A stretch of 46,791 nucleotides of DNA from a virus. Below, in pieces: positions 100 to 46,791 of the stretch. The stretch lies in IMG/VR virus record IMGVR_UViG_3300027742_000003, one strand, 5' to 3'. How positions within the stretch are numbered: the first letter of the stretch is position 1; every line of letters starts with the position of its first letter. The notes under the pieces were generated by a model. The model was not told where the DNA came from and ran no database searches. It was given only the letters and a program-made list of their open reading frames with translations. The position numbers were made by a program, and so were the translations under genes.

Positions 100-424
100 T
101 AAACGCATCCATCATGCTTGGGTATGTTGTTTCAAGGGATTCCATAATACGGCTAATAGACGCCGAAGAACTGCGGCGGTAACGTCCATCATTCATTGTA
201 ATGTTTCGTTCACGAAGCCCCTGTCTCCAATCTTCACGCATAGGCATTCTTGACAAGTACACACAACCGTCTGCATTGTTAGCGTAGCCAAGCTTAAAAC
301 CACGGATAGTAAACTCCTCAATAGGGGCTTCTATACGCTGGCTCTCTCTTGTCTCTGTAACAAGGATAATATTGTCATCAGAGCCAATAACATCAAGCAC
401 AATAACAGACTTCTCATTGTGCAT
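1..424 (-). CDS. hypothetical protein; 5' part of a 174-aa ORF split by the contig ends
   Basis: ATG at 424 (MHNEKSVIVLDVIGSDD...). The frame is open to position 1. Through the 99-bp overlap it continues to a TGA at 46592-46594. Confidence 0.6.
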   Translation of the reverse strand, partial: MHNEKSVIVLDVIGSDDNIILVTETRESQRIEAPIEEFTIRGFKLGYANNADGCVYLSRMPMREDWRQGLRERNITMNDGRYRRSSSASISRIMESLETTYPSMMDAFSKIKAGDLEVVAFSPAFCFKKTRSGISLCYRDF

Positions 425-464
425 AACAACAGTGCGCCTTAGTTTTTGATGTGCATATTCTAAA

Positions 465-1319
465 CTACCGTACATAAAAATTCTCCCCCACTGTTGGTGG
501 CAAGATAATGCCGCGAGTCTCAAGCCAGTTTAAAACACCGTGACGATTACCTTTAAAAATATCAGACAAAGATTTAGCTGAGTGAGATGCCTTGATTAAA
601 CTTGTATTACCCATAAGAAGTTTTGCAAAAGCGTTTTTTGTAGATTTAAACACCCAATCGATAAGCTTCTCATCTTTAAGCCAAGCATTAGATAAGACAC
701 GATACTCCATGCCATAAGGTTTTGGTCTAAAGCAGCCGAAATCCCCGTAAAGAGATTGTCTTTCAACATCATTATCATAAGACATAGCAGCTACGCCAAG
801 GTGGTAGTCTAATTGCATAGCTAACATACGACAATCATTAAAATGTTTTGTAGAGAATGGGTCGAAACCCTCCCCCCAACCTATGTGTACATGTCCTGCG
901 CCAGTTCTAAATGGTGTGTCTGCATTAGGTCGCGGATTTTCCTTACCTGTGTACGCATTGTAATCAGGCTCACAACCAAGCTCTCTTGCAGATGCAGGTT
1001 GCTTTGCAATAAGCTCAGCTCCAAAGTGTGCAGTTGGTACAGCACCGAGACGATAGTCGCCTATAATACCTTTTAATGTTGATAATACAGACTGTATGTT
1101 TGCATTAAACTGCTCAGGATTTTTAGCAGGGTCAATATTAAACTCTGCTGCCATGCCATCTAACTGTACAGCACCATTGTCCACCTTAAAAGGCTCTGCT
1201 TTTGTTCCCGGCACTAAACCAACAGCACTGATAGGATTTTCACCATCAAATACAAATACTTCTGGGTCAGCACCTAGTTGTAAGTTTTCTAATATAGAAT
1301 TTATGTCGAGCTTACTCAT
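465..1319 (-). CDS. carboxylate-amine ligase, phiEco32-like COOH-NH2 ligase type 2 family
   Basis: 284 aa with DPEVFVFD, MAAEFNI, GAGHVHIGWG and MEYRVLSNAW segments typical of this phage ligase family. ATGA start/stop overlap with the upstream amidotransferase. Confidence 0.8.
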   Translation of the reverse strand: MSKLDINSILENLQLGADPEVFVFDGENPISAVGLVPGTKAEPFKVDNGAVQLDGMAAEFNIDPAKNPEQFNANIQSVLSTLKGIIGDYRLGAVPTAHFGAELIAKQPASARELGCEPDYNAYTGKENPRPNADTPFRTGAGHVHIGWGEGFDPFSTKHFNDCRMLAMQLDYHLGVAAMSYDNDVERQSLYGDFGCFRPKPYGMEYRVLSNAWLKDEKLIDWVFKSTKNAFAKLLMGNTSLIKASHSAKSLSDIFKGNRHGVLNWLETRGIILPPTVGENFYVR

Positions 1320-2599
1320 AAATTATACCCCATGTTAATTAATGTTTGTCGTGTTTGAGCATCTTCAACACAACTGTTACAGAATTTATTTCCAACGGCA
1401 TCCTCAACAACCGTTTCAGGTGTGAGTGGGTCAGAACACCAAGAACAGTCACCCAAGTTTGTTGCAGGTTCACCTAAATCTTCGTCGCCAAGGTCTAACT
1501 CTTCTTCAACGATAGTGCGCCAATCAATAACTAGGTAAGGGTTGCCACTGTTGTAGCAAATCTTTTTAACCTCGCCAGTGAAGTAGTTGACGCTTTCAGC
1601 AAGAAGTGTTGCACAAGCAGCTTTCTTTTTGTTGCTCATTAAATCTTTCTGAGCCATATAGACACGAAGATTTGTACTAGAATCAACAAGTAAGCTACAG
1701 TCAAAGTATTCTTGACCATTATGAGCCTTACTGTATTGAGGTGTAGCATCAACAGCAAAAGTAACCTGCTTACCTTTTAGACTAAGCATGTTTTTAAACA
1801 CACGTTGACGTTCTTGTAGTGTGCTTTTGTCAGGGTTTAACGGAACAACTTTTTTATCCGCCTCAACCACCACTTTAGGAGAGGGTGTACGTACCATTTT
1901 AGTTCTTACAAACGAAACAGCTTCCCCCTTAGCCTTTGGCAACTGAATCTCATAATGCTCGCCAACATTTGTTATGTAAACTGTATTATGAGCAATACCA
2001 TTGCGCCATAAAGCGCCCTCAAGCATCCACCACTCAGATGCAAAGAACATTGTCTTGCCATCTTTAGAGAAACAATAACACATAGGGCGGTCTTCGTTTC
2101 TAAGTAGGTTTAAGGTGTTTTTAACATTATCAAGCCACACCAAAGACCAAGCATTTTGGACGCTAGAAGACATTTTATCAAACGTGTCTTGTAAACCAAG
2201 GTTGTTCATGTTGTGATAAAGATTTTCACTATCCACAGCAAAGTCTTTATAATCTAACAAAGAAGCTCTTGATTTGAGCGTACCATTATGGAATCCTAAC
2301 AAATTACCACATTCAAAAGGGTGGGCTGTGTTATTGTTAACCTTTCCAACTGTAGCGTAACGGTTATGGCCAATAAGACAATTGTTTGAATTATCGTTAA
2401 TAACCTCACCAGTAAGTTTTAACTCAAAGAAGTCACTTGGCAGCATTGCTCTTTTATGATGATTAAGCTCGCCAAACAGGTTTGAAGAAGCAACACCGAT
2501 AGAGTGAGCGCCACGAAGAATGTCCATATGAAGCATATCTTTAAAAGCCTTACGAGCCTTATAATCAATATCACCAACTACACCAACTATTCCACACAA
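1316..2599 (-). CDS. class II (Ntn) glutamine amidotransferase with a C-terminal extension ending in a CxxC...CxxC zinc-ribbon-like motif
   Basis: N-terminus M-CGIVGV (Cys2 nucleophile), HNRYAT, FHNGTL. C-terminus CSWCSD...CNSC. TTG start 8 nt after GGAGG. Confidence 0.85.
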   Translation of the reverse strand: MCGIVGVVGDIDYKARKAFKDMLHMDILRGAHSIGVASSNLFGELNHHKRAMLPSDFFELKLTGEVINDNSNNCLIGHNRYATVGKVNNNTAHPFECGNLLGFHNGTLKSRASLLDYKDFAVDSENLYHNMNNLGLQDTFDKMSSSVQNAWSLVWLDNVKNTLNLLRNEDRPMCYCFSKDGKTMFFASEWWMLEGALWRNGIAHNTVYITNVGEHYEIQLPKAKGEAVSFVRTKMVRTPSPKVVVEADKKVVPLNPDKSTLQERQRVFKNMLSLKGKQVTFAVDATPQYSKAHNGQEYFDCSLLVDSSTNLRVYMAQKDLMSNKKKAACATLLAESVNYFTGEVKKICYNSGNPYLVIDWRTIVEEELDLGDEDLGEPATNLGDCSWCSDPLTPETVVEDAVGNKFCNSCVEDAQTRQTLINMGYNL

Positions 2600-2659
2600 A
2601 ATAAACCTCCAAAATATTTTCTAAATAAAATTATTGTAAATCATCACCCTAAAACAAGG

Positions 2660-3727
2660 CTAAATACCAACTGGCTTAGTACCATTTCTTAAGTGCTTTT
2701 CAAACTGTATTAAGAATAGACAAAGTTTTTTAATATTCTCTTCTGAATAGTCAATAGAATCACCCTTACCAATACCCATGTACCTTTCAAAAGCCTTGTT
2801 AAATAGGTTACAGCCTTGCTCCTCTGTAGCACTTATGCTGTCAATAAATGATTTAACGTATGTCATGACATTAAACTTGGGATTATCAACATACCCACCC
2901 CAACCTTTTGAAACACTGCCAGAGATGAACCCACCAACCTTAGAGAAAGTGAGGATATTTGGCTCTTCGCGGTCGATAATCTTACGATAACTATTAATCT
3001 CAGTATACCTGTTAATGTAGTCTGACTTAGGTTGTTTTAACATACGACCTACACAAACAAACCTTGCTAATGTATCGCTATTTAACATGTTGTCTTGTGG
3101 TGCACTGTGCCCCCAAGAGCTGTATGCTTTTAGTGTGGTGTCTGACTGTTTTAAGAAGTATGTCATCTGCCACGCCATATTACCACTAACACCGCCATCA
3201 ACTAAATCACTAAACAACTTACAAAAATTTCTACACCAACTTTCCCAGATGTAACGAGTACACATAAGGGCTTCTGCCACAATACGGTTATCTAAGTCAG
3301 CACGTACTATAATCTGTCCAATCTTAATAGCCTTGTCAACACTTTTTACAACATAAGCTTCTTTGTAAGGGCTTTCATTAAATAGCCAATGATAATAGGC
3401 ATAAGCCTCTTTATGCAAACCAGTTTTCTTATTAAACATTTCTAATGTTCTTGTTGGCAATTCTGATGTAACGTATTCTATAACATCATCATCACCAAGT
3501 TTAAAGTCCAGTATTGGTGTTGGGAATATCGCACCAGCAGTACAACCAGTAGAGTTAGATACGTTAACAGTGAGCGGTGTTCTTTTACCCTTACTAACAA
3601 GGAATCGAAGCTTCATTAGATTAGACCCCCCATCTATGCGGTTATTCTTACCACTGTCCAATATGGAATCAATTGCCTTGCTCAATCTTTTATTAAGACC
3701 AAACTTATTACGTTTTTTAAAACTCAT
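2660..3727 (-). CDS. hypothetical protein (355 aa), immediately upstream of the amidotransferase on the minus strand
   Basis: Long ORF with GGAGGG 6 nt before the ATG. No motif recognised. Confidence 0.75.
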   Translation of the reverse strand: MSFKKRNKFGLNKRLSKAIDSILDSGKNNRIDGGSNLMKLRFLVSKGKRTPLTVNVSNSTGCTAGAIFPTPILDFKLGDDDVIEYVTSELPTRTLEMFNKKTGLHKEAYAYYHWLFNESPYKEAYVVKSVDKAIKIGQIIVRADLDNRIVAEALMCTRYIWESWCRNFCKLFSDLVDGGVSGNMAWQMTYFLKQSDTTLKAYSSWGHSAPQDNMLNSDTLARFVCVGRMLKQPKSDYINRYTEINSYRKIIDREEPNILTFSKVGGFISGSVSKGWGGYVDNPKFNVMTYVKSFIDSISATEEQGCNLFNKAFERYMGIGKGDSIDYSEENIKKLCLFLIQFEKHLRNGTKPVGI

Positions 3728-3903
3728 TGTAAGCCCTCCTAAGGCTGTTATTACTCTTACATATACATTGGTATTCTTTGCATATGTAAAAGCCCTGAGA
3801 ATGTGCCTCAGGAGCTTCTAAGCGTATTATTTAAACCAACCAAGCTCAATAGCTTTCTCAATACCTTTAATAACATCTAAGGCATGTTCCTTTGATACAA
3901 TCT

Positions 3904-4008
3904 TCAGTCTCTCCCCTCCCCAGCCCTCCCCTCAACACTGGCCCCAAAAACACGTATACGGTCTGGAGTAAGAGATTTATCTTTACGAATATTTATTTCA
4001 TTCGTCAT
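3904..4008 (-). CDS. possible 34-aa ORF ending inside a G-rich tract
   Basis: ATGA overlap with the stop of the upstream ORF (4005-4008). The -1 frame stays open for 28 more codons to a TAA at 3827. Confidence 0.25.
   Translation of the reverse strand: MTNEINIRKDKSLTPDRIRVFGASVEGRAGEGRD
3913..3945 (-). other. G-quadruplex-type tract on the minus strand that shares a 15-nt core with 8671-8687
   Basis: Minus strand reads GGGGccagtgttgaGGGGaGGGctGGGGaGGGGag. Shared core aGGGGaGGGc(a/t)GGGG. Confidence 0.7.
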
Positions 4009-4178
4009 AAGCACCTCTGAATATCTTCTATAATAAAGACATGCACAACTAGGCATACTGCAATTGCTACCGCCGAAAATGTAAACAAACCTATCTTATC
4101 CTCATACCAAGCCTTGATGCTAAGATAACAGCAAAATAGTTGAAACAGTAACATACAAAAAACTAATATAATTAACAC
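4005..4178 (-). CDS. small membrane protein (about 57 aa)
   Basis: GTG at 4178 lies 6 nt after GGGGGG. Hydrophobic LIILVFCMLLFQLFCCYL and FTFSAVAIAVCLVVHVFII. The longer track ORF (to 4232) would abut the tRNA. Confidence 0.45.
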   Translation of the reverse strand: MLIILVFCMLLFQLFCCYLSIKAWYEDKIGLFTFSAVAIAVCLVVHVFIIEDIQRCL

Positions 4179-4235
4179 AATAGACCCCCCTAAATATTTT
4201 CTAACATTAAATGATACAAACAAGCACCACAAAAC

Positions 4236-5571: not shown

Positions 5572-5682
5572 TAATTAAAATAATTTTGGTAAAACGCTCA
5601 AAAAAAGAGTATATACTAGTATAGGTCTTATTAATAGTGAACGTAGTGAACATTAATCAGTATTAAGAAAGACTAATAAGAA
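5572..5682 (+). repeat. R1: copy of a promoter-like repeat family (about 80% identical to R2)
   Basis: Aligns with 15845-15957: ...attttgg(t/g)aaaacgct(c)aaaaaaagagtatata...ttaata(g/a)tgaacg(t/a)agtgaa(c/t)attaat...taagaaaga(c/t)taataagaa. Confidence 0.85.
5586..5617 (+). promoter_or_regulatory. sigma70-like promoter inside R1, oriented antisense to the flanking minus-strand genes
   Basis: TTGGTA - 18 nt - TATATA(CT), with an A/T-rich UP-like tract upstream. Confidence 0.4.
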
Positions 5683-15844: not shown

Positions 15845-15957
15845 AATTATTTTCATTTATTTTTGGGAAAAACGCTAAAAAAAGAGTATATATAAGTATA
15901 TACATTAATAATGAACGAAGTGAATATTAATAAGATAGTAAGAAAGATTAATAAGAA
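15845..15957 (+). repeat. R2: copy of the promoter-like repeat family
   Basis: Aligns with R1 (5572-5682). Its 5' core also matches R3 (31801-31850, minus strand). Confidence 0.85.
15863..15896 (+). promoter_or_regulatory. sigma70-like promoter inside R2, upstream of the tRNAs and capsid genes
   Basis: TTGGGA - 18 nt - TATATA(TAAG), with an A/T-rich upstream tract. Confidence 0.45.
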
Positions 15958-33091: not shown

Positions 33092-33439
33092 TTAAATATC
33101 GTCTATATAAATAACAGTTTTACCAATTGACTTGGCGTATTCAATCTCAGCAGTTATGCCAACACTGTCTTCCCAGCCTTTCATCATAAGAACCCAAACA
33201 GCATCACAAGCATCTATGTAAGCTTTGTCAAGTTTCTCCCAAAAAGAGAAGTCCTTAGGCAGCCCATAGATATTTGCCATTGGGTGACAATGTACAATAG
33301 GTGAGAACACACATAAACCACCCTTAAGCAGTTCATTAGTCTTCTCCATCACCCTTAGGTAACGCTCCTCACGAATCTTCTTATCTTTGTCACTATCAGT
33401 CTTAGCATTTAAGCTATATACACTGCATAAATATATCAT
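33092..33439 (-). CDS. DUF1937-like protein (nucleoside 2-deoxyribosyltransferase-like fold)
   Basis: [10 protein letters not shown]...[30 protein letters not shown] pattern. Confidence 0.6.
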
Positions 33440-33831
33440 ATCATTTGTTCCTCATACTCACTTGATTTAATACCTGCTATTGTCATAACACTTTTCTCTT
33501 GTGTAAGCTCCTTACTTCTATCATCTAACTCTGGGTGAGTACGTACACCCTCAGCTAAAAACATTGCATTACACAACATGTGGTCAACATGCCTAAGGCC
33601 ACTTTCTGGGTCAATGTCTTCGCCAGCTAAGAAAGCCGACATGTGCCTAGCCAAGCTGTCGCATATCTCTGTATGATTAAGACCTTTGTGCCAATTACCC
33701 CTTGCGTATTTCTTTGCCCCGAACTGTAAGACAGAGGCACAACCTGTTAAAGCGTGCCTTGCCTCAAGAACCATAGACAAAGGGGACTTGTCAGTATTAA
33801 ACCGCATAGCCCCTTGTTCTGGTTTAGTCAT
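33436..33831 (-). CDS. DUF5664-like all-alpha dNTP diphosphohydrolase-like protein
   Basis: [13 protein letters not shown]...[35 protein letters not shown]. Confidence 0.6.
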
Positions 33832-33840
33832 AATTACCTC

Positions 33841-34110
33841 TTAGTGGATTGAAGCTGAATCAGCAAATGTATTACCGCTTAGCATTTCTCTTCGAACTAC
33901 CTCAGCACCCCTTACTTTGATGTATTGCAACATCATAAAGATTTTAGTGGCGTCGCCCTTAGAGAACTTCTCAGCATACTCTCTTGCCATCTTCTCATTA
34001 AACTTCTCGTTGATATTGGCCATAGTTACAGCACGATTCCAAGTTTGAAGTTTAGTGTCTTCAACATCGTTGAAAAGTGAATAGCCTTTGTACGAATTAT
34101 TATTGTCCAT
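33841..34110 (-). CDS. hypothetical protein (89 aa)
   Basis: Internal ATG (MDNNNSYKG...) just after the HNH stop. Confidence 0.55.
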   Translation of the reverse strand: MDNNNSYKGYSLFNDVEDTKLQTWNRAVTMANINEKFNEKMAREYAEKFSKGDATKIFMMLQYIKVRGAEVVRREMLSGNTFADSASIH

Positions 34111-34555
34111 TCTTTTCTCTCTCTCTTCTTTGCTTAGCAATTAGTTTTTCTTCTTCGGTTTTCTTGTCGTGACAATCCCCACACAATACTTGTAGGTTAT
34201 CAAGCTCACAAAACATTCTGTTTATACAGTCGTCCCAAGTGGTAAACCCAACTGCGGGGTCTATGATTGGCTTAATGTGGTCAACGTGTACATTCTTAAC
34301 ACGCCGCCTACTGCCATCCTTTTTAACAGATACAGGAACCTCCTGCTTACAGCCAGCACACATTTTAAAGCCACGCCTAGTTGAAGCAAGCTTAAGGCAC
34401 TCACCAATCGGCCCCCACTTCATTGTGCATCGCCTTAAGTTTCCTTTTATAAAGCTGTTAAATCTGGCCTCAGTCCACTGACCAGAACACCTAGTTTTCT
34501 CACCACTGGGACGCCCTCCTTTATTTTTTGTTGCCAATGTCCAACTCCTCCTCAT
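34100..34555 (-). CDS. HNH endonuclease (second copy type)
   Basis: CAGCKQE...VHVDHIKPI...LQVLCGDCHDKKT. The start could instead be the TTG at 34537 (AGGAGG upstream). Confidence 0.85.
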   Translation of the reverse strand: MRRSWTLATKNKGGRPSGEKTRCSGQWTEARFNSFIKGNLRRCTMKWGPIGECLKLASTRRGFKMCAGCKQEVPVSVKKDGSRRRVKNVHVDHIKPIIDPAVGFTTWDDCINRMFCELDNLQVLCGDCHDKKTEEEKLIAKQRREREKNGQ

Positions 34556-37659: not shown

Positions 37660-39529
37660 AACTCTCGCCAAATTGAACATCAATATCTAACTCCCGATTC
37701 ATTTTAAGTTTATCATTAACACGTTTGATTGCATCTTTAAATGCAGCTACACACTTCTCTTGCCTACCCTTTTTAATAAGGGCAATAACTTCGTCGTGCA
37801 TTTGACCTATAAGGGGGATACCCTTGGCCTTAAGTTCCATAACCCACATATCAAAACAGTATACACCACTACCCTGATTAAGCGTAGAGAACCTGTCCTT
37901 GTCACTACGTAAGCTATACCAAAATCCACTAATAGGGTTCTTAAGCCACTTCTGACCTGAGAACGTCCTAACAACCTGCTCCTCAGCAATCACCTTAACA
38001 GACCAATTACGCTGCCAGTATATCTCATTAAGAGCTTTCGCCTGAGATAGAGGCATCCCTGTTTCACGAGCCAATCCCTCTGGCCCTTGTCCATAAACAC
38101 CTCCGTAGTTAACTGGCTTAGCTGTCTTACGACCAGCTTTGATAATCTTCTTATCTTCGGAGTCTATGAAATCACCCGTCTTGTGTCTTGCTTCTTGCTC
38201 TGGTGTAAGATAGCCAGCTAGTACAGCAATATCAACATGAGGACAATACCCCTCTTCAAGCATGGTTTCAACATACTCAGGGTCATGCTCCCACATAAAG
38301 TGCTGCTTAGTTCTGTCTTCTAGTGCCGCCATATCAGAGCCACAAAGCTCATAACCATCTGGCGCTATTAAACAACCCCTTAGTTCCTCACCGTAAGGTT
38401 TATCAACTCCGGGAAGATTAACAACTACCCGATGCTTAAACCTTAGCGTATTGGTAAATCCTTGTATCCTAGCTTGTACAAATCCGTTGCTATCCATGTT
38501 TTCTAAGAAGCCACTAACTACATCTAGTCTGTGCTTAATAACACCAACTTCTTTAAGGAATATTACAGACGGCTCTACCTCACATAGCCTCTCAACGCTT
38601 GGTGTAAGTTCTGGCTCATTGTCATCATTCTTTCTACGTACTTGTGGTATTTGGCGTAAGTCGCCTGTATCTTTATTACGTTTGAATTTGAATGTACAAG
38701 GAACCCAACCCAACCCTGCTAACCACGCCTTAATCTGCGGGTCTGAGGCTGCATTTGGCTCATTATAAGAAGATATGTAAGACATTTCCTCAGTGTCTTC
38801 TGGTAAACCATGCTCCTTAAGAAGAGCAAACCATTTCTCACCTAATGCACTTAACGTACTATCTTGCTTATAACATTTCTTAGGTTTTGTCTTAGTGGTA
38901 TAGACAGCCACCTTAGGCATCACTTCCTCAAGCTTAGCAACAGCATTATCATGCAGCGCTGTTAACCTCTCTTTAAGTTCCTTTGCCTTAGGTACATTTA
39001 GCTTCCAACCTCTTGCCTCTTGCTCCCTAGCACACTGCATTTTAAACATGAGGTAATCAATCAACTTCCAAGCTTCTTCCTCAGTTTCATACATCCTAAG
39101 TAGTTTAGCCCATTGTTTTTCCCAAAGGGTGGTATTGATTTTCACGTCTTCTTTACAGCGGTGCTTGTACTCATCAGGAGATAACCCCTCCCAATCAGTA
39201 ACCTTTGGCTTAGGAACTCCGAAGTCAACACCGTAGTCTTCAAGCCCGTGTGTTAACCTTGTTGGTTCCAAATACCAAGACAGTGCTAAGGTATCTACTA
39301 GCTTTGCTTTTATCTTAATGCCAAGCATTTTCTCAACAGCAGGTATGTCAAACCTGTAAATGTTGTGCCCAACAAGAAGCGTAGCATTGCTAAAGTAGTT
39401 CCTCATCATGTCATAAGAACAGGTTGCTCCAAGTTTCTTGCCGTTGTCTACTGCTATACAGTGGATTTTAGTGTAATCAAAGCCATCAGTTTCAATATCA
39501 AATACATCACCTGACGCTTTTCTTTTCAT
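37643..39529 (-). CDS. DNA polymerase, family A, with a 3'-5' exonuclease domain
   Basis: VFDIETDG (Exo I), RKTAKPVNYGGVYGQG (motif B), GQMHDEVI (motif C). Confidence 0.93.
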   Translation of the reverse strand: MKRKASGDVFDIETDGFDYTKIHCIAVDNGKKLGATCSYDMMRNYFSNATLLVGHNIYRFDIPAVEKMLGIKIKAKLVDTLALSWYLEPTRLTHGLEDYGVDFGVPKPKVTDWEGLSPDEYKHRCKEDVKINTTLWEKQWAKLLRMYETEEEAWKLIDYLMFKMQCAREQEARGWKLNVPKAKELKERLTALHDNAVAKLEEVMPKVAVYTTKTKPKKCYKQDSTLSALGEKWFALLKEHGLPEDTEEMSYISSYNEPNAASDPQIKAWLAGLGWVPCTFKFKRNKDTGDLRQIPQVRRKNDDNEPELTPSVERLCEVEPSVIFLKEVGVIKHRLDVVSGFLENMDSNGFVQARIQGFTNTLRFKHRVVVNLPGVDKPYGEELRGCLIAPDGYELCGSDMAALEDRTKQHFMWEHDPEYVETMLEEGYCPHVDIAVLAGYLTPEQEARHKTGDFIDSEDKKIIKAGRKTAKPVNYGGVYGQGPEGLARETGMPLSQAKALNEIYWQRNWSVKVIAEEQVVRTFSGQKWLKNPISGFWYSLRSDKDRFSTLNQGSGVYCFDMWVMELKAKGIPLIGQMHDEVIALIKKGRQEKCVAAFKDAIKRVNDKLKMNRELDIDVQFGESYADIH

Positions 39530-40020
39530 TAATCCTCCTCATCAAACAGGTTAGACATTTCTGCCTTAAACACATTGACAATGTAGTTAATACGCTTACT
39601 GTTAGTGTCAAGTATGCACATTATCTCTCTTGGTTTGTATTGCTCAATGAAGTATAAGTGTAAGATTGTTCTATCATCACCAGACTTGTCAGCAATAGCT
39701 TCTTTAATCCTGTTAATAGTATCTTCACTTGTTTGAGACATCTCATTTGTCTCAGCTAACTCCTCATCAAACTCTACGTAAGTACCACAAGAACGTTCAT
39801 CACGCTTAAAACTTTTTAGCGTATTGTTCATGATAGTATTAAACCAAGCACCTAACTCTTGGCGCTCAGGGTCGAAGCTAGAAATATACCTGAGGGCACG
39901 CTCAAAGGACTCTTGTAAAATGTCCTCAGCGTTCTCTGGTGTACCAGCTCGATTAGCCAGCTTCTTTAGCAGCAGCTTACGCTCACTGACGTAGAAGTCT
40001 TCTATTTGTTGAAATGACAA
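39529..40020 (-). CDS. ECF-type sigma-70 family sigma factor
   Basis: Region 2: AEDILQESFERALRYISSFDPERQELGAWFNTIMNNTLKSFKRDE. Region 4: DRTILHLYFIEQYKPREIMCILDTNSKRINYIV. TTG start 6 nt after GAGGAG. TAATG overlap with the polymerase. Confidence 0.85.
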   Translation of the reverse strand: MSFQQIEDFYVSERKLLLKKLANRAGTPENAEDILQESFERALRYISSFDPERQELGAWFNTIMNNTLKSFKRDERSCGTYVEFDEELAETNEMSQTSEDTINRIKEAIADKSGDDRTILHLYFIEQYKPREIMCILDTNSKRINYIVNVFKAEMSNLFDEED

Positions 40021-40212: not shown

Positions 40213-40374
40213 TTAACAACTACCGTCACAAGGAGCGTCCAAACATGTATTACACATGATAGGGCTATACCCACATATTTCTGCTGAGTACCCGCCATAG
40301 GTAAGTGCCCCACAATCAGGACACTCTCCCTCTTCACCATCACAAGGTTGACCACTTTGATTATCACAACACAT
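40213..40374 (-). CDS. Cys-rich small protein (53 aa, 10 Cys), probably zinc-binding
   Basis: Translated by hand: MCCDNQSGQPCDGEEGECPDCGALTYGGYSAEICGYSPIMCNTCLDAPCDGSC. GGAGGG 7 nt upstream. Below the ORF-track cutoff. Confidence 0.55.
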   Translation of the reverse strand: MCCDNQSGQPCDGEEGECPDCGALTYGGYSAEICGYSPIMCNTCLDAPCDGSC

Positions 40375-40550: not shown

Positions 40551-42208
40551 TATGCCTCCGTAAATAAATGGTTAGTTTTATTCCAATACAGTGGTACTGT
40601 ACCGCCCTCACCAAACTCCCTGTCTGCAAGAACAACAAGCTTACGCATGTTACGTTCCTCAGCAGTTAGCTCTGGGTCTTTATTACCCTCAAGACCAATC
40701 GCATAGTTGCATGAACGAGCCATTGCACTACTACCTGCGAAGTAATCTGTGGTAATCTTACCACCCCTGTCCCAAGGTGTTGCACCCTTAGCTGGTTTGT
40801 TTAGGTGACAAAAGAAGAAGATAGCTATATCTAAATCCATTGCCATTGCAGCAGCCTCCTGAGCCACGCCCTTAAGATGTGAGTCAATATCGCTATTACT
40901 CATGCCGTTTGTCAGGTTGGTGATTGGGTCGATAAACACAACCTTAACACCAGCCGCAGCAGCAGCACGTATATCTAGCTTAAGAGTCTCCCAACCTATG
41001 TGCTGATAAAGGTTAAGCATACAGATGCGGTCTGCAACTTCCTGACCAGCTTTCTCATAAGCTTCCTCATCAAAAGCAACCTTAGGGTCATGGAACACCT
41101 TACCACAAACCTTAGACAACACCATTTTATAGGTTTTGTTATTGGCCTCTTCTGGCTTAGCAAACATACAAGGCAGGTTATGCTCTTTCATGAACCAAGC
41201 GCCAAGAGCGTTAACTATCTCACTCTTACCCATCTTCTCACCAGCGGCTATATAGTATGTCTCACCAAACCTCAAACCACGGGTGATAGCTGTAAGACCA
41301 TCCCAAGGGAACGACAAGCCCCACTCAGCAGGTTTCTTAGCCTCTTCATGAACATCCTTACCCCATACAAGTCGAGTGTTCTTAGGCTTCTTAGCCTTAA
41401 ACATAACAGCTTTGAATGCAGCTTTAGCACAACCTTTCAACAAACAATCATTAGCATCCTTTTCAGGGAGCGTAATAACCCTTGCATCAGGGAACACCTT
41501 GATACAATCATCAGTAGCTTTCTTACCAGCGTCATCATTATCAAAACAGAAATCAACCTGTTTGAAGTGCTTACGTATTTTACTAGCAAGCCTTGATAAG
41601 TCACGATAAGCTGATGCTGCGCCATGAGGCAAACTACATACAGCAGGAGCGTAGTCCTTATACTTCTCGTCTTGGAACCTGTCTATGATTTGCTTAAGTG
41701 ATGGGGCATCTAACTCACCCTCAACAATAATAAGCCTATCAGAGCCAGACTGTATTGCTTGCTCCCAACCAAATAAATCAACGTCTGATTGGTCGCCTGT
41801 AGACCATATACGCTTACCCTCAACTAACCTAGTTTTGTAAGATTTAAGTTCGCCATCAAGCTTATAAGGATAATGGTGGAATGCGACAGTCTTGCCGTCC
41901 TCCTCACTAAACCCAATCTTAATGCCGTAATAGTCCAAAGACTTACTGCCTAGCTTTCTATCTGGCAAGTTGACTACGCCTAACGTATTAATAAATGCTA
42001 TGCGTTCTTCAACTTCCTCAGGTGTTAAGCCAGTACGTTCTTTCTTAGGAATGTCCTCATACTTACGTTCATCACCAAATGGGTGCCTTACATATGTGTT
42101 ACAGGAGTAACAATAGCCATCCACACCCCCATCTTCTCTGGCAAACACTTGTAAGCCTTGACGACTACCACAAGCTTCATGCCTAACTTTTTGAATACAT
42201 TGACCTAT
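40550..42208 (-). CDS. bifunctional primase-helicase (T7 gp4-like); the 5' end is probably upstream of the track start (42148)
   Basis: TOPRIM IIVEGELDAPS, Walker A AAGEKMGKSE. The zinc motif HEACGSRQGLQVF..DGYCYSC begins upstream of GTG 42148. The only candidates there are ATA 42208 and ATT 42196. Confidence 0.85.
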   Translation of the reverse strand: MGQCIQKVRHEACGSRQGLQVFAREDGGVDGYCYSCNTYVRHPFGDERKYEDIPKKERTGLTPEEVEERIAFINTLGVVNLPDRKLGSKSLDYYGIKIGFSEEDGKTVAFHHYPYKLDGELKSYKTRLVEGKRIWSTGDQSDVDLFGWEQAIQSGSDRLIIVEGELDAPSLKQIIDRFQDEKYKDYAPAVCSLPHGAASAYRDLSRLASKIRKHFKQVDFCFDNDDAGKKATDDCIKVFPDARVITLPEKDANDCLLKGCAKAAFKAVMFKAKKPKNTRLVWGKDVHEEAKKPAEWGLSFPWDGLTAITRGLRFGETYYIAAGEKMGKSEIVNALGAWFMKEHNLPCMFAKPEEANNKTYKMVLSKVCGKVFHDPKVAFDEEAYEKAGQEVADRICMLNLYQHIGWETLKLDIRAAAAAGVKVVFIDPITNLTNGMSNSDIDSHLKGVAQEAAAMAMDLDIAIFFFCHLNKPAKGATPWDRGGKITTDYFAGSSAMARSCNYAIGLEGNKDPELTAEERNMRKLVVLADREFGEGGTVPLYWNKTNHLFTEA

Positions 42209-42372
42209 AACACACCCCCTTTGTTTTCTATGATAAATATTGTAATAGTACCAATAATATTAAACAACATCATAATGGCAAATATGCCAAGCTTGCGCTT
42301 ATACACACTTATAATACCAACACAACAACAGAAAAGTTGAAATAATAAAATGTAAAACAAGAAAACTAACAC
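42205..42372 (-). CDS. small two-TM membrane protein (55 aa)
   Basis: GTG 6 nt after GGAGG. MLVFLFYILLFQLFCCCVGII...MMLFNIIGTITIFII. Confidence 0.45.
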   Translation of the reverse strand: MLVFLFYILLFQLFCCCVGIISVYKRKLGIFAIMMLFNIIGTITIFIIENKGGVL

Positions 42373-42753: not shown

Positions 42754-42810
42754 AACTCTTCCTATTTAATTAAAATCACAATAGGCACTCCGAAGAATGC
42801 CTATTAGGAA

Positions 42811-43027: not shown

Positions 43028-43585
43028 TTAACTAAGTAGTTTACGAATCTCAGCAGCTTCTTTCTCAAGTGCTGCTAAACGTTCACGAGCTTGAGACTTA
43101 GCATCATCTTCGTATACAAAATTAACCAGCTTTTTAACATCACCCTTAAGTACGATTGACTGAGGTAATACGCCAGAACTAATACCACTGGGGATGAAAG
43201 AGCCTTGCTTACTTACAGACAATTCGTAGTTGTTAAACATATCCCCACTAGTCTTATCTTTCAAATCACGTTGTAACTTACGTATAACCTCAAGCGCATT
43301 CTGAACTTGCGCCACAGTTAATTTATTACTCATTTTATGTTCCTTTTTAATCCTAAATTGTCTGTGTTGTTGTTCTGTTACAACACCACCAGTACGCCAT
43401 TTTGTAACCTCAGGTAAAATACCTACCTTTATAAACTCAACACGAACCCTAACATCATCACCAAATATACTACGAACTTCTGTTAAATCACCAACAGAAA
43501 GCTTTGACATAGTTGCAAAGTAGTACACCTTAATTGTATTTGGGAAGCGTATGCCCACAGTGTAGGCTTGACCTGCTCTATACAT
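43028..43585 (-). CDS. hypothetical protein (185 aa)
   Basis: ATG at 43585 after GAGGA. The longer track form overlaps the GGCT-like gene. Confidence 0.6.
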   Translation of the reverse strand: MYRAGQAYTVGIRFPNTIKVYYFATMSKLSVGDLTEVRSIFGDDVRVRVEFIKVGILPEVTKWRTGGVVTEQQHRQFRIKKEHKMSNKLTVAQVQNALEVIRKLQRDLKDKTSGDMFNNYELSVSKQGSFIPSGISSGVLPQSIVLKGDVKKLVNFVYEDDAKSQARERLAALEKEAAEIRKLLS

Positions 43586-43592
43586 AACGTCC

Positions 43593-43988
43593 TCACTCTT
43601 TGGTTTTGTACTTGAACCAATCCCCATCCTTGACAGGCATTGTCTTATCTTCGTCGATATGGTATATCCAAGCACGAACCGTCTCACCACTATCATCAAG
43701 TACAACATCCACCTGACTCCTATTATAAAAAGTTGGGTAGCCCTCTAAGCCATCAAGAGGCCCTGTAAGACCTTGCTCATCAGTGCGGTACACTTCTACT
43801 ACTAAGGGTGTTTCATGGCTGCTGTGTTCCAATGAGACGCTAGGAAACGCACCTAAGGAGTACATGTTGTAGTTGTTTACAGTTTTACCTGTATCAACCA
43901 GCTCAGCATTAGCAAGACCAATAACATGGTGATTACCTAAGCCCTGTCTTAAGCTACCGTACACAGCTACAAGAATATCTTTATCCAC
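43593..43988 (-). CDS. gamma-glutamyl cyclotransferase-like (AIG2/GGCT fold) protein
   Basis: N-terminal VAVYGSLRQGLGNHHVI signature. Confidence 0.7.
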   Translation of the reverse strand: MDKDILVAVYGSLRQGLGNHHVIGLANAELVDTGKTVNNYNMYSLGAFPSVSLEHSSHETPLVVEVYRTDEQGLTGPLDGLEGYPTFYNRSQVDVVLDDSGETVRAWIYHIDEDKTMPVKDGDWFKYKTKE

Positions 43989-44473
43989 TACTTCTCTCCT
44001 AGGGGCTTACAATAAACAGTTTCATAATTAAACAAACCTAATTGGTCTGCTAGCTTAGCATGATTAACAGCGTTCTTAAACGTCACCATCATATGAGAAG
44101 CGCCACGCTTAGTAACATACTCCTCAGCCTTGCTTAATAATGTACGACCAACGCCAGTACCACGGGCGCTTTGAACTACGTAGATAGTGTCCGTAAGGGC
44201 AGTAAGCTCCCCAGTGTGCATTGATGGGCACAAGAACATTGACACATAGCCAAGTATGTCTTCTTGATTACCCTCTTCATCATATTGAATAGCAAGCAAC
44301 CAGAAGTGCATACGATTATCGTCTGCTGCCTTATAAGATTGCCACTGAACATTAAGCTCAGAAGTTTTACGTCTATCGTCTACCTCATCCCACTGATTAA
44401 GAAGAAGTTCATTAAAGCGTGCATTCTTCTCAAGCTCAGATGACTCAACAAATTGATATTTTAAATTACTCAT
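43988..44473 (-). CDS. GNAT-family N-acetyltransferase
   Basis: VVQSARGTGVGRTLLSKAEEYVTKRG (motif A, Q/RxxGxG). Confidence 0.75.
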   Translation of the reverse strand: MSNLKYQFVESSELEKNARFNELLLNQWDEVDDRRKTSELNVQWQSYKAADDNRMHFWLLAIQYDEEGNQEDILGYVSMFLCPSMHTGELTALTDTIYVVQSARGTGVGRTLLSKAEEYVTKRGASHMMVTFKNAVNHAKLADQLGLFNYETVYCKPLGEK

Positions 44474-44930
44474 TACGGAGTTCCTTAAGTTGACCTTGTG
44501 CTTCTTTAAGCTGTTCTTCAAGCTTGTTAACAAGGCACTCTAACTTGTCTTCTTTAGGACAAGGTTCTGGTTTAATACGGTATTCAAAATCTTTATCAAA
44601 TGTAGGCAACATCGTTACCCCCTTATCGTGACAATTTTTAACTGTCAGCCACTTCCCTATAGAGTCTTTAACCTGAATAACCTTACCTTGCATCCAAGCA
44701 ATAACAATATCGTAATGCTTGTAGTAGTTTGAGGTGTCTTCCTCTACAAGAGAAAACCTTTCTTTTGACCAATTATAGTGTAATCCCGACAGCTTCATGT
44801 TGAGGGTTCCCACTATATCAACAACAGTAAACACCTCCCCAGACATAAACCGTCTAGCTATATCTGGCTCAACACAGCTCAAATCCATATCTGTTCTTCG
44901 AACCTTATCACCAACTTTAAAATCACTCAT
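44466..44930 (-). CDS. hypothetical protein (154 aa) inside the ligase operon
   Basis: ATG 6 nt after GGAG, overlapping the ATP-grasp stop. Confidence 0.6.
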   Translation of the reverse strand: MSDFKVGDKVRRTDMDLSCVEPDIARRFMSGEVFTVVDIVGTLNMKLSGLHYNWSKERFSLVEEDTSNYYKHYDIVIAWMQGKVIQVKDSIGKWLTVKNCHDKGVTMLPTFDKDFEYRIKPEPCPKEDKLECLVNKLEEQLKEAQGQLKELRNE

Positions 44931-45720
44931 CACCATCTCCAAACATTGTTTTAAAGCGCTCAGCATAGCCAGTTAAGGTAGAGCCTGTTAAGCCGGGTGC
45001 TGTATTAATTTCCAATACAATTGCATACTCATTGTGCTCGTTATAGATGATGTCAACAGCACCAAAGTCAAGGTTAATAGCTTGAACAGCACGTACTGCT
45101 TGCTCTAACACTTGGTGTGGTGGCTCAACACCCTCATTACGAGCATAGATAAAGCCGTTGTCATGGTTACGTACAAGCCAATTGACCTGCTCATTTGGAA
45201 CACTACGGTCACGAGCCTTACGCTGTACATCCACAACTTCACCATTAAGTACGTGAATACGCCATTCAGACTTCTTCTTAACATACATTACGTACAGTGG
45301 ACAATCTTCTAAAACATCTTCACCAGTTTTAATCTTAATACCAGCGCCAGAGTGCCCGCTTAATTCATGACGTTCAACAACAGTACGCCCTAAGTACAAC
45401 CAACGTTGAGCTTCTCGCTTATCTTTAGTGTGCTGAGGAACCGCTACAGCTTCATCGTGACCGCAATAATTGTTGTATTCTAAAATACTGTCAAAGAATG
45501 CCAGCTTATTAGCTGCAACAGCAACGGCACTAGGCGTATTAATAACGCGACAACTATTAACTTCATCAGGTAGCTTAGTACAACCCCAATTAATAACCGT
45601 CTTTTCTTCATCCCCTGCAAAGCGGCTAGCAGAGCGTCTAATACGTTTTGCATCTAACTCCTCCGATAAAGCCTTAACAGACTTACTTCCAGCTTTGTAT
45701 GGATATATAAATAAAGACAT
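44923..45720 (-). CDS. ATP-grasp ligase (RimK-like, phage type)
   Basis: 265 aa with ...HSGAGIKI..., WRIHVLNGEVV and AIVLEINTAPGL. Confidence 0.8.
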   Translation of the reverse strand: MSLFIYPYKAGSKSVKALSEELDAKRIRRSASRFAGDEEKTVINWGCTKLPDEVNSCRVINTPSAVAVAANKLAFFDSILEYNNYCGHDEAVAVPQHTKDKREAQRWLYLGRTVVERHELSGHSGAGIKIKTGEDVLEDCPLYVMYVKKKSEWRIHVLNGEVVDVQRKARDRSVPNEQVNWLVRNHDNGFIYARNEGVEPPHQVLEQAVRAVQAINLDFGAVDIIYNEHNEYAIVLEINTAPGLTGSTLTGYAERFKTMFGDGDE

Positions 45721-46595
45721 TAGAAATCCTCCATAGGCTCATCAGGCCATTCAATATTAGATGGGAAAGATAACCCACCAATAACTTGTTCATTAAAGCT
45801 GTTCCAATCAACAGCGTGTGCAATAGGTAGTGCATACTCAAGACCAACCTCAAGCTCTGCAACTATATTAACATCATTAAGAAGTTCACCAGCACAATCA
45901 CCAAGCATCTTGTAAACAAAAGACTCAGGAGCTTCCAGTGCCATACTTACTACATCAAGTGGTGACTCAAACGTTTGTGCTTGTTCACGCATGTTGTACA
46001 ACACATTACACCACACCTTAAGAACTTCAAAGTCTGCTGTGCTTCGCATTGCTCGGTACTCAAGAGAGCCATACTTACTCAAAGAGTTTAGGTTTAAGGC
46101 TGAATAACGTATCATACTAGAGGCAAGTGGTCTTAGACTACCCTTTACTATAGACTCTTCAAGAACTTTTGCTTGGTAGTCTGCATCACAAACACGTAAG
46201 CAGAATAGGTTGCCCTCTCTATAAGCCCCACAATAACGTGTTAAGATTGTTTCAAGCAAGTATGTAGACAAGATTAAGTTATACATATGCACAACGTTAA
46301 GCTCTTGAACATTAACATGAACATGCACACCTGCTCTTGGTGTCTCGTAGTAAGCAGAGTTTGACAAAGCTTCCTTAAGGTTGTTTAAGCAAGTGACTGT
46401 CTCATCAAGTGAGCGTGGTTCTCGCATAACATACTCATTAGACTCACCTCTAAGACTGTGGTCAATCTCAGTACGCCAATCATCATTATCAAAGTTTGGC
46501 AGGTTCTCACCCTCAACCTCTACCTCTACACCTAATGCACCAGCCTTAAGCTTGTGGTTGGGCATGTTTAGTTTCTGTGCCACCGTTGGTATCAT
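45720..46595 (-). CDS. Amidoligase_2-like carboxylate-amine ligase (GCS2 / glutamine-synthetase-like fold)
   Basis: GVEVEVEG..., RGESNEYV, AGVHVHVN, GSLEYRAM. Confidence 0.75.
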   Translation of the reverse strand: MIPTVAQKLNMPNHKLKAGALGVEVEVEGENLPNFDNDDWRTEIDHSLRGESNEYVMREPRSLDETVTCLNNLKEALSNSAYYETPRAGVHVHVNVQELNVVHMYNLILSTYLLETILTRYCGAYREGNLFCLRVCDADYQAKVLEESIVKGSLRPLASSMIRYSALNLNSLSKYGSLEYRAMRSTADFEVLKVWCNVLYNMREQAQTFESPLDVVSMALEAPESFVYKMLGDCAGELLNDVNIVAELEVGLEYALPIAHAVDWNSFNEQVIGGLSFPSNIEWPDEPMEDF

Positions 46596-46791
46596 GCGGC
46601 CCCCTGTTCAAGCTTCTTAATAAACATATTTAGGAAAGAGAACTTATCAGACAGCTTATAAGAGCCATCGTCATTAACCTCACCAATCTTACGGAAGTCT
46701 CGGTAGCATAGTGAAATACCTGAACGAGTCTTTTTAAAACAGAACGCTGGCGAGAATGCTACAACCTCCAAATCACCAGCCTTAATCTTAC
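46592..46791 (-). CDS. 3' part of the 174-aa junction-spanning ORF (see 1-424)
   Basis: ...SYKLSDKFSFLNMFIKKLEQGAA-TGA, with an ATGA overlap with the amidoligase start. Confidence 0.6.
   Translation of the reverse strand, partial: KIKAGDLEVVAFSPAFCFKKTRSGISLCYRDFRKIGEVNDDGSYKLSDKFSFLNMFIKKLEQGAA
46693..46791. repeat. 99-bp exact terminal direct repeat, copy 2
   Basis: Identical to positions 1-99. Confidence 0.95.

Follow-up and report, generated by a model that had tools for sequence, protein, structure and literature searches.

A predicted amide-bond-forming gene cassette in the early arm of a circular Zobellviridae-type podophage genome

The subject of this study is a gene cassette for amide-bond chemistry in IMG/VR virus record IMGVR_UViG_3300027742_000003; "the window" denotes the whole of this sequence, 46,791 nucleotides (nt) in length. 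Nine, perhaps ten, genes form one operon on the minus strand, which is transcribed in the order unk355, class-II amidotransferase, COOH-NH2 ligase, unk191, Amidoligase_2, ATP-grasp ligase, unk154, GNAT acyltransferase, and GGACT/AIG2-like cyclotransferase (the three "unk" proteins belong to orphan families; see Table 1 for coordinates). There is hardly any doubt that this operon is a member of the phage amidoligase cassette, which has already been described and named in the podoviruses phiEco32, LUZ24, PA11, CW02, and RIO-1. It has the co-linear set of four enzymes on one strand, the location in the early arm ahead of the primase-helicase gene, and, with GGACT, a gamma-glutamyl-cleaving enzyme. 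Which genes are present, that their catalytic motifs are intact, how the operon is built, and that it is co-conserved were all observed directly. A preliminary description, made from the sequence alone, had noted six of the genes, which represent the downstream part (about two-thirds) of the operon.

The explanation which we prefer joins three statements: the operon belongs to this known cassette, its products follow a general amide-assembly logic, and the acceptor is a small molecule or a peptide rather than a protein. Taken as a whole, it is given a probability of roughly 0.4. The amide-assembly logic is likely when judged by itself; the small acceptor is a tentative choice, for which we would not claim even odds.

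The passage on the cassette in Duhaime et al. (2017; PMC5498523), which cites Hardies 2013 and Iyer, describes a seven-gene "peptidoglycan modification cassette" for PSA-HP1 and lists its conservation in RIO-1, phiEco32, 7-11, PA11, tf, MR299-2, LUZ24, PaP3, and CW02. The role expressed by this name rests on prediction (PMC5498523) and is repeated in PMC10580990. Relative to most Zobellviridae-type loci, the clade of the window has the class-I amidotransferase (Peptidase_C26) replaced by a rare GNAT-plus-GGCT make-up (GGCT, gamma-glutamyl cyclotransferase).

Operon structure and co-conservation of the cassette

Bases 1-99 of the window are an exact copy of bases 46693-46791. Because the ends are exactly duplicated, the assembly is considered circular, with a true circle of 46,692 bp. 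As had been proposed in the preliminary description, the operon runs across this 99-bp seam, from 3727 to 1 and on from 46692 to 43593, possibly to 43028. Start and stop codons overlap at seven consecutive junctions. Five of these had been listed before, together with six minus-strand open reading frames (ORFs), and all were confirmed from the sequence: a 1-nt overlap of the GNAT stop with the GTG start of GGCT at 43988; an 8-nt overlap of the unk154 stop with the GNAT ATG at 44466-44473 (ATGAGTAA); an 8-nt overlap of the ATP-grasp stop with the unk154 ATG at 44923-44930 (ATGAGTGA); a 1-nt overlap (TAATG) of the Amidoligase_2 stop with the ATP-grasp ATG at 45720; and a 4-nt overlap (ATGA) of the stop of the seam ORF (unk191) with the Amidoligase_2 ATG at 46592-46595. 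Two more coupled junctions are an 11-nt overlap between the COOH-NH2 ligase and unk191 genes at 465-475, visible on the joined circle, and an ATGA overlap of the amidotransferase stop with the COOH-NH2 ligase start at 1316-1319. The sole gapped junction is that between unk355 and the amidotransferase, which are 60 nt apart. The GC content is even (37-44%, compared to 41% overall).

The ORF which runs off the contig end had been assigned 174 amino acids (aa). This is too short, because an ATG at 475 is preceded by the Shine-Dalgarno sequence GGGGGAG and because the homologues (185-191 aa) all begin with MYGSLEYA. The actual protein, unk191, has 191 aa.

A megablast comparison of the region with 50,697 phage records gave zero matches, and all comparisons were therefore made at the protein level. 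IMG/VR was scanned with the COOH-NH2 ligase as anchor, which returned 306 relatives; the best 80 loci were kept, and their ORFs were searched iteratively with each protein from the window (compared loci are identified by L numbers). A locus was considered complete when 5 kb or more of upstream sequence and the primase-helicase gene were in view (n = 50). The kept loci are the closest relatives, and the frequencies thus describe Zobellviridae-type phages. The class-II amidotransferase, COOH-NH2 ligase, unk191, Amidoligase_2, and ATP-grasp genes occur in every complete locus (Table 1). In these loci, every match to a cassette gene is on one strand and beside the primase-helicase gene, and the genes are kept in the same order and on the same strand in 50/50 cases, an arrangement which is far beyond chance. 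COOH-NH2 ligase, unk191, and Amidoligase_2 are contiguous, in this order, in 77 of 78 loci, and the primase-helicase gene is directly downstream of the cassette in all comparison loci. LUZ24 and the phiEco32-like phage SU7 hold the same five enzymes plus GGCT; the co-linear set of class-II amidotransferase, COOH-NH2 ligase, Amidoligase_2, and ATP-grasp ligase is also found in CW02 and in two oyster-metagenome phages, and GGCT also in CW02. In related phages, the five core genes thus keep company; GNAT and unk154 are clade-specific accessories.

A class-I amidotransferase/C26 peptidase or GGCT is present in all 50 complete loci. The clade of the window (L006-L013) is the exception in having GNAT plus GGCT instead of the class-I amidotransferase, for which no gene was found anywhere in the window. 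The class-I amidotransferase of Zobellviridae-type cassettes scores best as Peptidase_C26 (gamma-glutamyl hydrolase-like). Its gene sits between the unk355-family gene and that of the class-II amidotransferase (L001 235-882, which is CW02 gp2; L005 6111-6743; most of L014-L091).

Among 185,579 species genomes, the ligase was encountered in only 26 loci, almost all of which are phage-sized or short contigs from metagenome-assembled genomes. The cassette is thus considered phage-restricted. This has a bearing on the idea that the operon consists of auxiliary metabolic genes which boost nitrogen, glutamine, glutamate, or glutathione metabolism (the gamma-glutamyl cycle) for phage production. A role in nitrogen metabolism was speculated upon in eLife in 2024 for Phage-ZRK32, which carries homologous genes for an amidoligase, an amidotransferase, an ATP-grasp enzyme ("glutathione synthase"), and GGCT (PMC10945688), and a ligase similar to gamma-glutamylcysteine synthetase (GCS), an ATP-grasp synthetase, and a cyclotransferase are indeed the enzyme types of the gamma-glutamyl cycle. 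However, that study reports a growth effect of the phage preparation only and no gene-level test (PMC10945688). The enzymes from the window are far from GshA and GshB, with no NCBIfam equivalog match and with scores far below the cut-offs. The cassette is phage-restricted and not host-derived, and it has two orphan families which are foreign to any housekeeping pathway. We thus consider an auxiliary metabolic role very improbable.

Table 1. Features of the window and occurrence of the cassette genes in 50 complete loci
Feature	Position	Strand	Length (aa)	Basis or remark	Complete loci
unk355, orphan family phrog_34254/27195	2660-3727	-	355	First operon gene; ORF with Shine-Dalgarno sequence AGGAGGG	45/50, upstream of the amidotransferases
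Class-II (N-terminal nucleophile, Ntn) glutamine amidotransferase	1316-2599	-	427	Pfam GATase_6, PHROG 4736/18128	50/50
COOH-NH2 ligase, phiEco32-type, glutamine synthetase (GS)/GCS-like	465-1319	-	284	PHROG 3815	50/50
unk191 (phrog_11055), N-terminal 158 codons	1-475	-		Seam gene, circular reconstruction	50/50
unk191, C-terminal part and stop	46592-46791	-		Same seam gene; complete gene is 1-475 plus 46592-46692	
Amidoligase_2, GS/GCS-like carboxylate-amine ligase	45720-46595	-	291	Pfam PF12224	50/50
ATP-grasp ligase, RimK/R2K.2 type	44923-45720	-	265	Pfam R2K_2, PHROG 2599	50/50
unk154 (phrog_13152)	44466-44930	-	154	PHROG match; small beta domains and C-terminal coiled coil	6/50
GNAT acyltransferase	43988-44473	-	161	Pfam Acetyltransf_1 (PF00583)	1/50
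GGACT/AIG2-like gamma-glutamyl(amine) cyclotransferase (GGCT)	43593-43988	-	131	GTG start; Pfam GGACT (PF06094)	13/50
Possible tenth gene	43028-43585	-	185	ORF starting 8 nt past the GGCT stop; clade-specific	
Class-I amidotransferase/Peptidase_C26					49/50
Terminator-like hairpin and T run	3793-3813	-		Just upstream of the first operon gene; consensus scan only	
Terminator-like hairpin, 12-bp stem	42779-42806	-		3' of the cassette and trailing small ORFs, ahead of primase-helicase; consensus scan only	
Small membrane-protein ORF	4005-4232	-	75	Upstream of the operon	
Small membrane-protein ORF	42205-42372	-	55	Just before primase-helicase	
Primase-helicase	42148-40550	-			
ORF with 11 cysteines (phrog_13157)	40213-40374	-	53	3' of primase-helicase, ahead of the sigma-factor gene	
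Sigma-70-family factor	39529-40020	-		Between primase-helicase and DNA polymerase	
HNH endonuclease, MazG-like deoxynucleoside triphosphate pyrophosphohydrolase, nucleoside 2-deoxyribosyltransferase-like protein	34100-34555 and 33092-33831	-		Replication arm	
AT-rich direct repeat, 55 nt	5581-5635 and 15858-15912			Intergenic	

Enzymes and orphan proteins encoded by the operon

The preliminary assignments of GGCT, GNAT, ATP-grasp, and Amidoligase_2 hold, since all of them score above the Pfam cut-offs in profile searches, and the glutamine amidotransferase expected in 1-3727 was recovered as well. Domain searches also agree with the view that two ATP-dependent ligase folds are combined with an acetyltransferase and a GGCT-like enzyme. 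No transmembrane segment or signal-like N-terminus was detected in any operon protein, and none of these proteins has a close solved structure.

The COOH-NH2 ligase matches PHROG 3815 ("COOH.NH2 ligase") with an E-value of 1.8e-81 over 247 residues and scores 22.9 bits against Pfam PF14395, which has a curated cut-off of 25. Its orthologue in L009, which is 61% identical, has an unmarked PF14395 hit on record. This Pfam family, COOH-NH2_lig, takes its name from phiEco32. The protein carries the motifs GADPE, GHVHIG, and MEYR, in which DPE, HxH, and EYR are invariant in the alignment. Amidoligase_2 scores 30.4 bits against PF12224 (cut-off 22) and matches PHROG 7469 with an E-value of 4e-62. 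Its motifs are GVEVEVEG, GVHVHVN, and LEYR, and residues E24, E26, E28, H91, H93, E179, and R181 are invariant in the family alignment, corresponding to the active-site pattern ExE, HxH, ExR. As both proteins show the same ExE/DPE, HxH, E[YF]R pattern, the COOH-NH2 ligase probably represents a second family of the GS-like fold of Amidoligase_2. An hhalign comparison of the two, made with shallow alignments, was not significant; apart from the shared motifs, the common fold is taken from the Pfam clan assignment, which we presume to unite them. The "third ligase type" of the preliminary description is thus indeed a further ligase, but probably not a third fold.

The ATP-grasp ligase scores 30.0 bits against R2K_2 (PF18299; cut-off 26.2; residues 146-241) and 21.0 bits against RimK (PF08443; cut-off 21), and matches PHROG 2599 with an E-value of 1.3e-86. 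The C-terminal E-I-N metal-binding motif is present (LEINTAPG), and there are weak NCBIfam matches to MptN, RimK, MvdC/D, and Ddl. Homologues are encoded in 312 deposited phage genomes, among them LUZ24-like Pseudomonas phages and phiEco32-like coliphages.

The class-II amidotransferase (GATase_6, 48.7 bits, cut-off 27) starts with TTG-TGT, so that the nucleophilic cysteine comes right after the initiator (MCGIVG). Weak NCBIfam matches point to PurF, GlmS, and EgtC (E-value 2.9e-4 for EgtC). The C-terminal domain of about 200 aa (1316-1963) ends in a C4 zinc ribbon CxWC...CxxC (CSWC...CNSC), followed by a short conserved tail, and the zinc-ribbon cysteines are near-invariant in 53 divergent homologues. 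Profile searches identified no Pfam or PDB relative of this domain, a Pfam scan of the 53 members giving scattered single matches.

The GGACT protein scores 74.4 bits against PF06094 (cut-off 22.8) and matches PHROG 2520 with an E-value of 1.5e-40. Its YGSL motif is intact (VYGSLRQG), and so is the catalytic glutamate: in an alignment with human GGACT (3JUB) the glutamate of LDGLEGYP coincides with the residue mutated from E to Q in 3JUD. The GNAT protein scores 41.6 bits against Acetyltransf_1 (cut-off 20.7) and has the acetyl-CoA loop RGTGVG (R/Q-x-x-G-x-G/A). Among the compared loci, GNAT is limited to L006-L013 and is thus a clade-specific addition, not a core member. The GNAT-bearing variant is rare, with only 2 IMG/VR contigs and 3 weak matches in 50,697 phage records.

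The 191-aa protein is a universal core member of the cassette which has so far been unannotated. The AlphaFold2 (AF2) model of unk191 shows small beta-barrels plus helices, with a mean predicted local distance difference test score (pLDDT) of 77. The structure search that had been suggested for the run-off ORF thus yielded a usable model but no significant fold match, nothing being found below an E-value of 0.07 by Foldseek against PDB. Weak matches of the model to Tudor/eIF5A-like barrels were rejected as functional evidence. In BFVD, only uncharacterized phage proteins were matched, CW02 gp8 included. The best-conserved feature is an Arg-rich loop (P-x-R-x-D-W-R-Q-G-L-R-E-R-N), which is modelled as flexible, and the loop core R...[RK]-x-G-[LV]...N is retained even in LUZ24 gp17 and SU7 gp084. 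These two proteins are homologous to unk191 (hhalign probability 94.5%, E-value 8e-8); for RIO-1 gp12, the probability is 13%. The residues which are invariant or nearly so are Gly, Arg, Ala, and Leu, and the family alignment reveals no conserved Lys, Glu, Asp, or C-terminus for covalent conjugation. For this reason, unk191 is read as a binding or bridging subunit; our guess is that it most likely is non-catalytic and binds a substrate or bridges the ligases.

This bears on the alternative that the operon tags proteins. According to that reading, glutamate or a short peptide would be put on a host or phage protein in a RimK- or Pup-like manner, for takeover of translation or transcription or for protection of phage proteins, with GGCT or C26 reversing the reaction and unk191 acting as adaptor or substrate. 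It is in line with the assignment of the ATP-grasp enzyme to the R2K.2/RimK group, which contains predicted protein modifiers in phage-host conflicts (PMC4431377; PMC7824862), with its PHROG label (ribosomal protein S6 modification), with the protein conjugation by GS-like ligases in pupylation (PMC2588565), and with a conserved non-enzymatic protein encoded between, and translationally coupled to, two GS-like ligases. On the other hand, unk191 is folded, has no conserved C-terminal Gly-Gly-Gln/Glu, and has no invariant Lys, Glu, or Asp as a conjugation site. There is no Pup-ligase or proteasome-type partner, and the authors who defined Amidoligase_2 judged its neighbourhoods to represent peptide metabolites, not protein conjugation (PMC2588565). 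Protein tagging is thus considered unlikely, also with respect to the aims and to the part of unk191 just mentioned.

The first operon gene encodes unk355, a member of an orphan family with 297 representative clusters in 1.84 billion proteins. Cys62, Ser119, and Arg158 are invariant, Glu162 and His207 near-invariant, and unk355 is possibly a thiol enzyme. Profile searches found no Pfam or PDB relative, a Pfam scan of 60 members giving scattered single matches, and a word search from the alignment for further relatives returned 11 matches only. The AF2 model, built from a 7-sequence alignment, was unusable (pLDDT 54), which renders its Foldseek matches meaningless. PDB-sequence profile matches for unk355, unk191, and the C-terminal domain of the amidotransferase were discarded as repeat-protein or zinc-finger noise. 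Long members of the unk355 family (495-591 aa; L073, L046, L053, L035, L084, L005, L091) have N-terminal tandem repeats of a small "KVGDxV" beta-domain, which resemble the N-terminus of unk154 (MSDFKVGDKVRR).

The third orphan protein, unk154, is an accessory and a recurrent neighbour of the ATP-grasp gene, not a core member. It is encoded directly after that gene in L009-L012 and is absent from L006-L008; in Pseudoalteromonas phage RIO-1, its homologue gp15 (E-value 4e-16) has the same position. RIO-1 gp16, encoded after the unk154 homologue (L118 7417-7638), is a glutaredoxin, a weak hint of thiol chemistry near the cassette.

One might go further and see in the triad of COOH-NH2 ligase, unk191, and Amidoligase_2 a phage-specific conjugation machine, with unk191 as scaffold or carrier by way of its Arg-rich loop. 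On unk191, the two ligases would construct a peptide together with the ATP-grasp enzyme; in the early phase of infection, this peptide would be passed on to a host target or be directed against it. The protein unk355, which bears Cys and His residues, would be a transferase or hydrolase. By analogy, such a machine could be likened to the pair of LysW and LysX or to the system of Pup, PafA, and Dop. We consider this scenario improbable as a whole.

Possible product and role of the cassette

Under the explanation which we prefer, with a small molecule or peptide as acceptor, we infer the order of reactions, the substrates, and the biological role as follows. Soluble cytoplasmic proteins would, soon after infection, assemble and partly trim a short gamma-glutamyl-type amide product on a cytoplasmic acceptor. 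Both COOH-NH2_lig and Amidoligase_2 would turn a carboxylate into an activated acyl-phosphate and couple it to an amine, with at least one of the bonds made by the GS-like ligases probably being a gamma-glutamyl amide. The ATP-grasp enzyme of RimK/R2K type would add a further amino acid. With its Cys1, the Ntn amidotransferase might either supply ammonia from glutamine for amidation or hydrolyse a gamma-glutamyl amide, as EgtC does. In the clade of the window, GNAT may cap a free amine, and the GGACT-like enzyme may release the gamma-glutamyl group as 5-oxoproline. The gene of unk191 is flanked by those of the two GS-like ligases, with translational coupling on either side; the protein would most likely be a substrate-binding or bridging subunit. 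Candidate acceptors are a glutathione-like peptide or a peptidoglycan stem-peptide precursor.

Known family chemistry, the strict co-conservation with translational coupling, and the universal gamma-glutamyl-cleaving enzyme are what mainly suggest this scheme. The presence of such an enzyme in every cassette suggests that the gamma-glutamyl group is a transient handle. A transient gamma-glutamyl handle is used in the biosynthesis of butirosin (BtrJ/BtrG) and of ergothioneine (EgtA/EgtC). The either/or occurrence of C26 and GGCT in the complete loci also parallels bacterial neighbourhoods of Amidoligase_2, where Iyer, Burroughs and Aravind (2008; PMC2588565) found genes for an amidotransferase-like thiol peptidase or an AIG2 cyclotransferase; these authors favoured glutathione-like peptide metabolites over protein conjugation.

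Several points weigh against our scheme. Comparative-genomics predictions, to which the preliminary description had referred, do exist (PMC2588565; PMC4431377; and, cited by PMC5498523, Iyer 2009 and Hardies 2013); in agreement with that description, full-text searches yielded no product, substrate, structure, experimentally established role, or gene-level phenotype for any member of the cassette. The R2K/RimK type of ATP-grasp enzyme is known or predicted above all for the modification of proteins, a prediction made for phage R2K enzymes by Burroughs et al. (2015; PMC4431377), and this keeps a protein target in play. GGCT was found in only 13/50 Zobellviridae-type loci, and hence GGCT trimming is not universal. 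The roles given to unk191 and unk355, both of which lack a recognizable fold, are guesses. Finally, where one operon encodes both a ligase and a hydrolase acting on one and the same bond, this could also point to a modification that is reversible instead of an intermediate in biosynthesis.

The published hypothesis of peptidoglycan-precursor modification is a special case of our explanation rather than a contradiction to it. Under this hypothesis, the ligases, together with the amidotransferase and the cyclotransferase, would remake unusual stem-peptide linkages (gamma-D-Glu, amidated iso-Gln, D-Ala-D-Ala-type) on precursors in the cytoplasm, and a wall changed in this way would shut out superinfecting phages or affect lysis. 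Counterparts by enzyme type are Ddl (ATP-grasp), gamma-glutamyl ligases, and GatD-like amidotransferases. A universal target fits the very broad host range of the cassette-bearing contigs, and the cassette genes of PSA-HP1 are expressed immediately after infection (Howard-Varona et al., 2020; PMC7082346). The proposal, made for PSA-HP1, RIO-1, and the phages listed with them, is purely predictive, however, and no muropeptide data were found in the literature. The operon has no Mur-ligase, transpeptidase, flippase, membrane, or periplasmic component, all of its proteins being soluble; a lytic phage has little time for the wall turnover by which modified stem peptides would come to show; and stem peptides vary between the host phyla in which the cassette occurs. 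We thus regard wall precursors as an unlikely target, and the effects on superinfection or lysis as equally unlikely.

The location of the cassette within the genome has to be considered for two further alternatives. Between about 8.9 and 31.2 kb, the plus strand encodes structural proteins (terminase, portal/adaptor, major head protein, tail appendage, internal virion protein); early genes and those for replication are on the minus strand. Small early ORFs (7.4 to 3.9 kb) are transcribed ahead of the ligase operon; a few small ORFs follow it, and then the primase-helicase gene. The remaining replication arm encodes a sigma factor, DNA polymerase, exonucleases, an HNH endonuclease, a MazG-like enzyme, and a deoxyribosyltransferase-like protein. 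The placement of the module after the small early genes and ahead of those for primase-helicase, sigma factor, and DNA polymerase, as given in the preliminary description, is thus correct.

From this placement, a host-takeover or counter-defence function had been proposed. In an anti-defence role, the product or the enzymes would disarm an immune system of the bacterium, for instance through consumption or mimicry of a signalling molecule. Early expression and the place among host-takeover genes would fit, as would the R2K families proposed to act in phage-host conflicts (PMC4431377). Against this, no PADLOC model or known anti-defence protein was matched, although the PADLOC library is no test of anti-defence roles, and a cassette which all genomes of several virulent lineages retain, with hosts from many phyla, resembles a core function of infection more than an answer to a single, sporadic defence system. 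The counter-defence idea is pure conjecture, and its probability is slight.

The location next to the primase-helicase gene, which is immediately downstream in all lineages examined, might also suggest a hypermodification of DNA or nucleotides, in which the ligases would couple an amino acid to a base or to the precursor of a nucleotide. The zinc ribbon of the amidotransferase or the Arg-rich loop of unk191 could then bind nucleic acid. A PHROG scan of ten replication-arm proteins revealed no base-hydroxymethylase, DNA kinase, aGPT-Pplase, or DpdA-type transglycosylase, however. Furthermore, a comparison of native and amplified DNA by nanopore sequencing in Vicosavirus Rembedalsseter, a close relative of the cassette-bearing phage UFV-P2, gave a nick-associated motif as the sole signal, base modifications not being detected (PMC11780129). 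Because modification enzymes were not found among the scanned replication-arm proteins, and in view of the Rembedalsseter data, this is the weakest of the alternatives and highly improbable.

In its proteins, the window groups with Zobellviridae (CW02, PA11/O4/TC6, CVT22, and oyster-metagenome phages) at about 45-55% identity; for CW02 and PA11-group proteins, the identities are 37-57%. The genome is that of a circular podophage of Zobellviridae type (about 46.7 kb), which has a divergent marine member of the cassette. The hairpin at 3793..3813 is terminator-like and would divide the cassette from the small early genes. Sigma-70-like promoter sites were no more frequent than in shuffled sequence. 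The genome encodes a sigma-70-family factor between primase-helicase and DNA polymerase, as do CW02, RIO-1, and phiEco32, and middle and late promoters are thus probably not sigma-70 consensus sites. The 185-aa ORF which may be a tenth operon gene has no PHROG or PADLOC match; in L006-L010, a gene of similar size comes after GGACT. Two paralogous small membrane-protein ORFs, which share the motif LLFQLFCC (BLASTP E-value 3e-8), flank the operon. An ORF for a Cys-rich protein and the genes for nucleotide-related enzymes are included in Table 1. A direct repeat of 55 nt, which is AT-rich and has a palindromic core (TATATACTAGTATA), is present once in each of the early and structural arms, the two copies being 75% identical; it may serve as a regulatory element or promoter specific to the phage.

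Among the early gene blocks of virulent short-tailed phages, the cassette ranks with the most widespread. It occurs in LUZ24-like Pseudomonas phages, which are relevant for therapy, and no role was found reported more than 15 years after it was first noticed. The window contributes a divergent marine member and the rare GNAT-bearing variant. The parts list becomes sharper, with five invariant genes, including that for the unannotated 191-aa family, and an orphan family with conserved Cys, Arg, Glu, and His. Together with the C26-type peptidase or GGCT in every cassette, this list aids the design of experiments; the function is not solved by it. For the question of function, cultured model phages are better systems than this metagenomic contig.

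Comparison with known systems

Pupylation (Pup, PafA, Dop) is similar in that two paralogous enzymes of the GS-like ligase type are encoded beside a small partner protein. Unlike Pup, unk191 is a folded protein of 191 aa with no conserved C-terminal GGQ/GGE; there is no Pup_ligase Pfam match, and proteasome genes are lacking. With the glutathione cycle (GshA, GshB, GGCT) and with EgtA-EgtC, the operon shares a GCS-like ligase, an ATP-grasp synthetase, a cyclotransferase, and a stand-alone Ntn amidotransferase domain capable of acting as a gamma-glutamyl amidohydrolase. It differs in that its NCBIfam scores are far below the equivalog cut-offs, and nothing points to specificity for Cys or Gly.

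In the butirosin pathway, the ATP-grasp enzyme BtrJ installs a gamma-glutamyl protecting group, which the GGCT-fold protein BtrG removes as 5-oxoproline; BtrI is the carrier protein. An ATP-dependent ligase, a GGCT-fold remover, and a small non-catalytic protein are common to both systems, a likeness by enzyme type. unk191 is not an acyl-carrier protein, however, and the cassette has no decarboxylase or monooxygenase genes.

The bacterial neighbourhoods of Amidoligase_2 (PMC2588565) resemble the phage cassettes in combining a GS/GCS-like ligase with a thiol peptidase or an AIG2 cyclotransferase. The phage cassettes go beyond these by another GS-like ligase, an ATP-grasp ligase, the Ntn amidotransferase, and two orphan proteins, and their occurrence is limited to phages.

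The closest correspondence is found with the phage cassettes themselves. The clade of the window differs from the Zobellviridae-type cassettes, being devoid of the class-I amidotransferase/C26 peptidase (49/50) and having GNAT (1/50) and the gene for the 154-aa protein. With the phiEco32/RIO-1-type cassette, the window shares a class-II amidotransferase, COOH-NH2_lig, Amidoligase_2, an ATP-grasp enzyme, and AIG2/GGCT, all encoded on one strand, as well as the intervening protein of the 191-aa type and the place before the primase-helicase gene.

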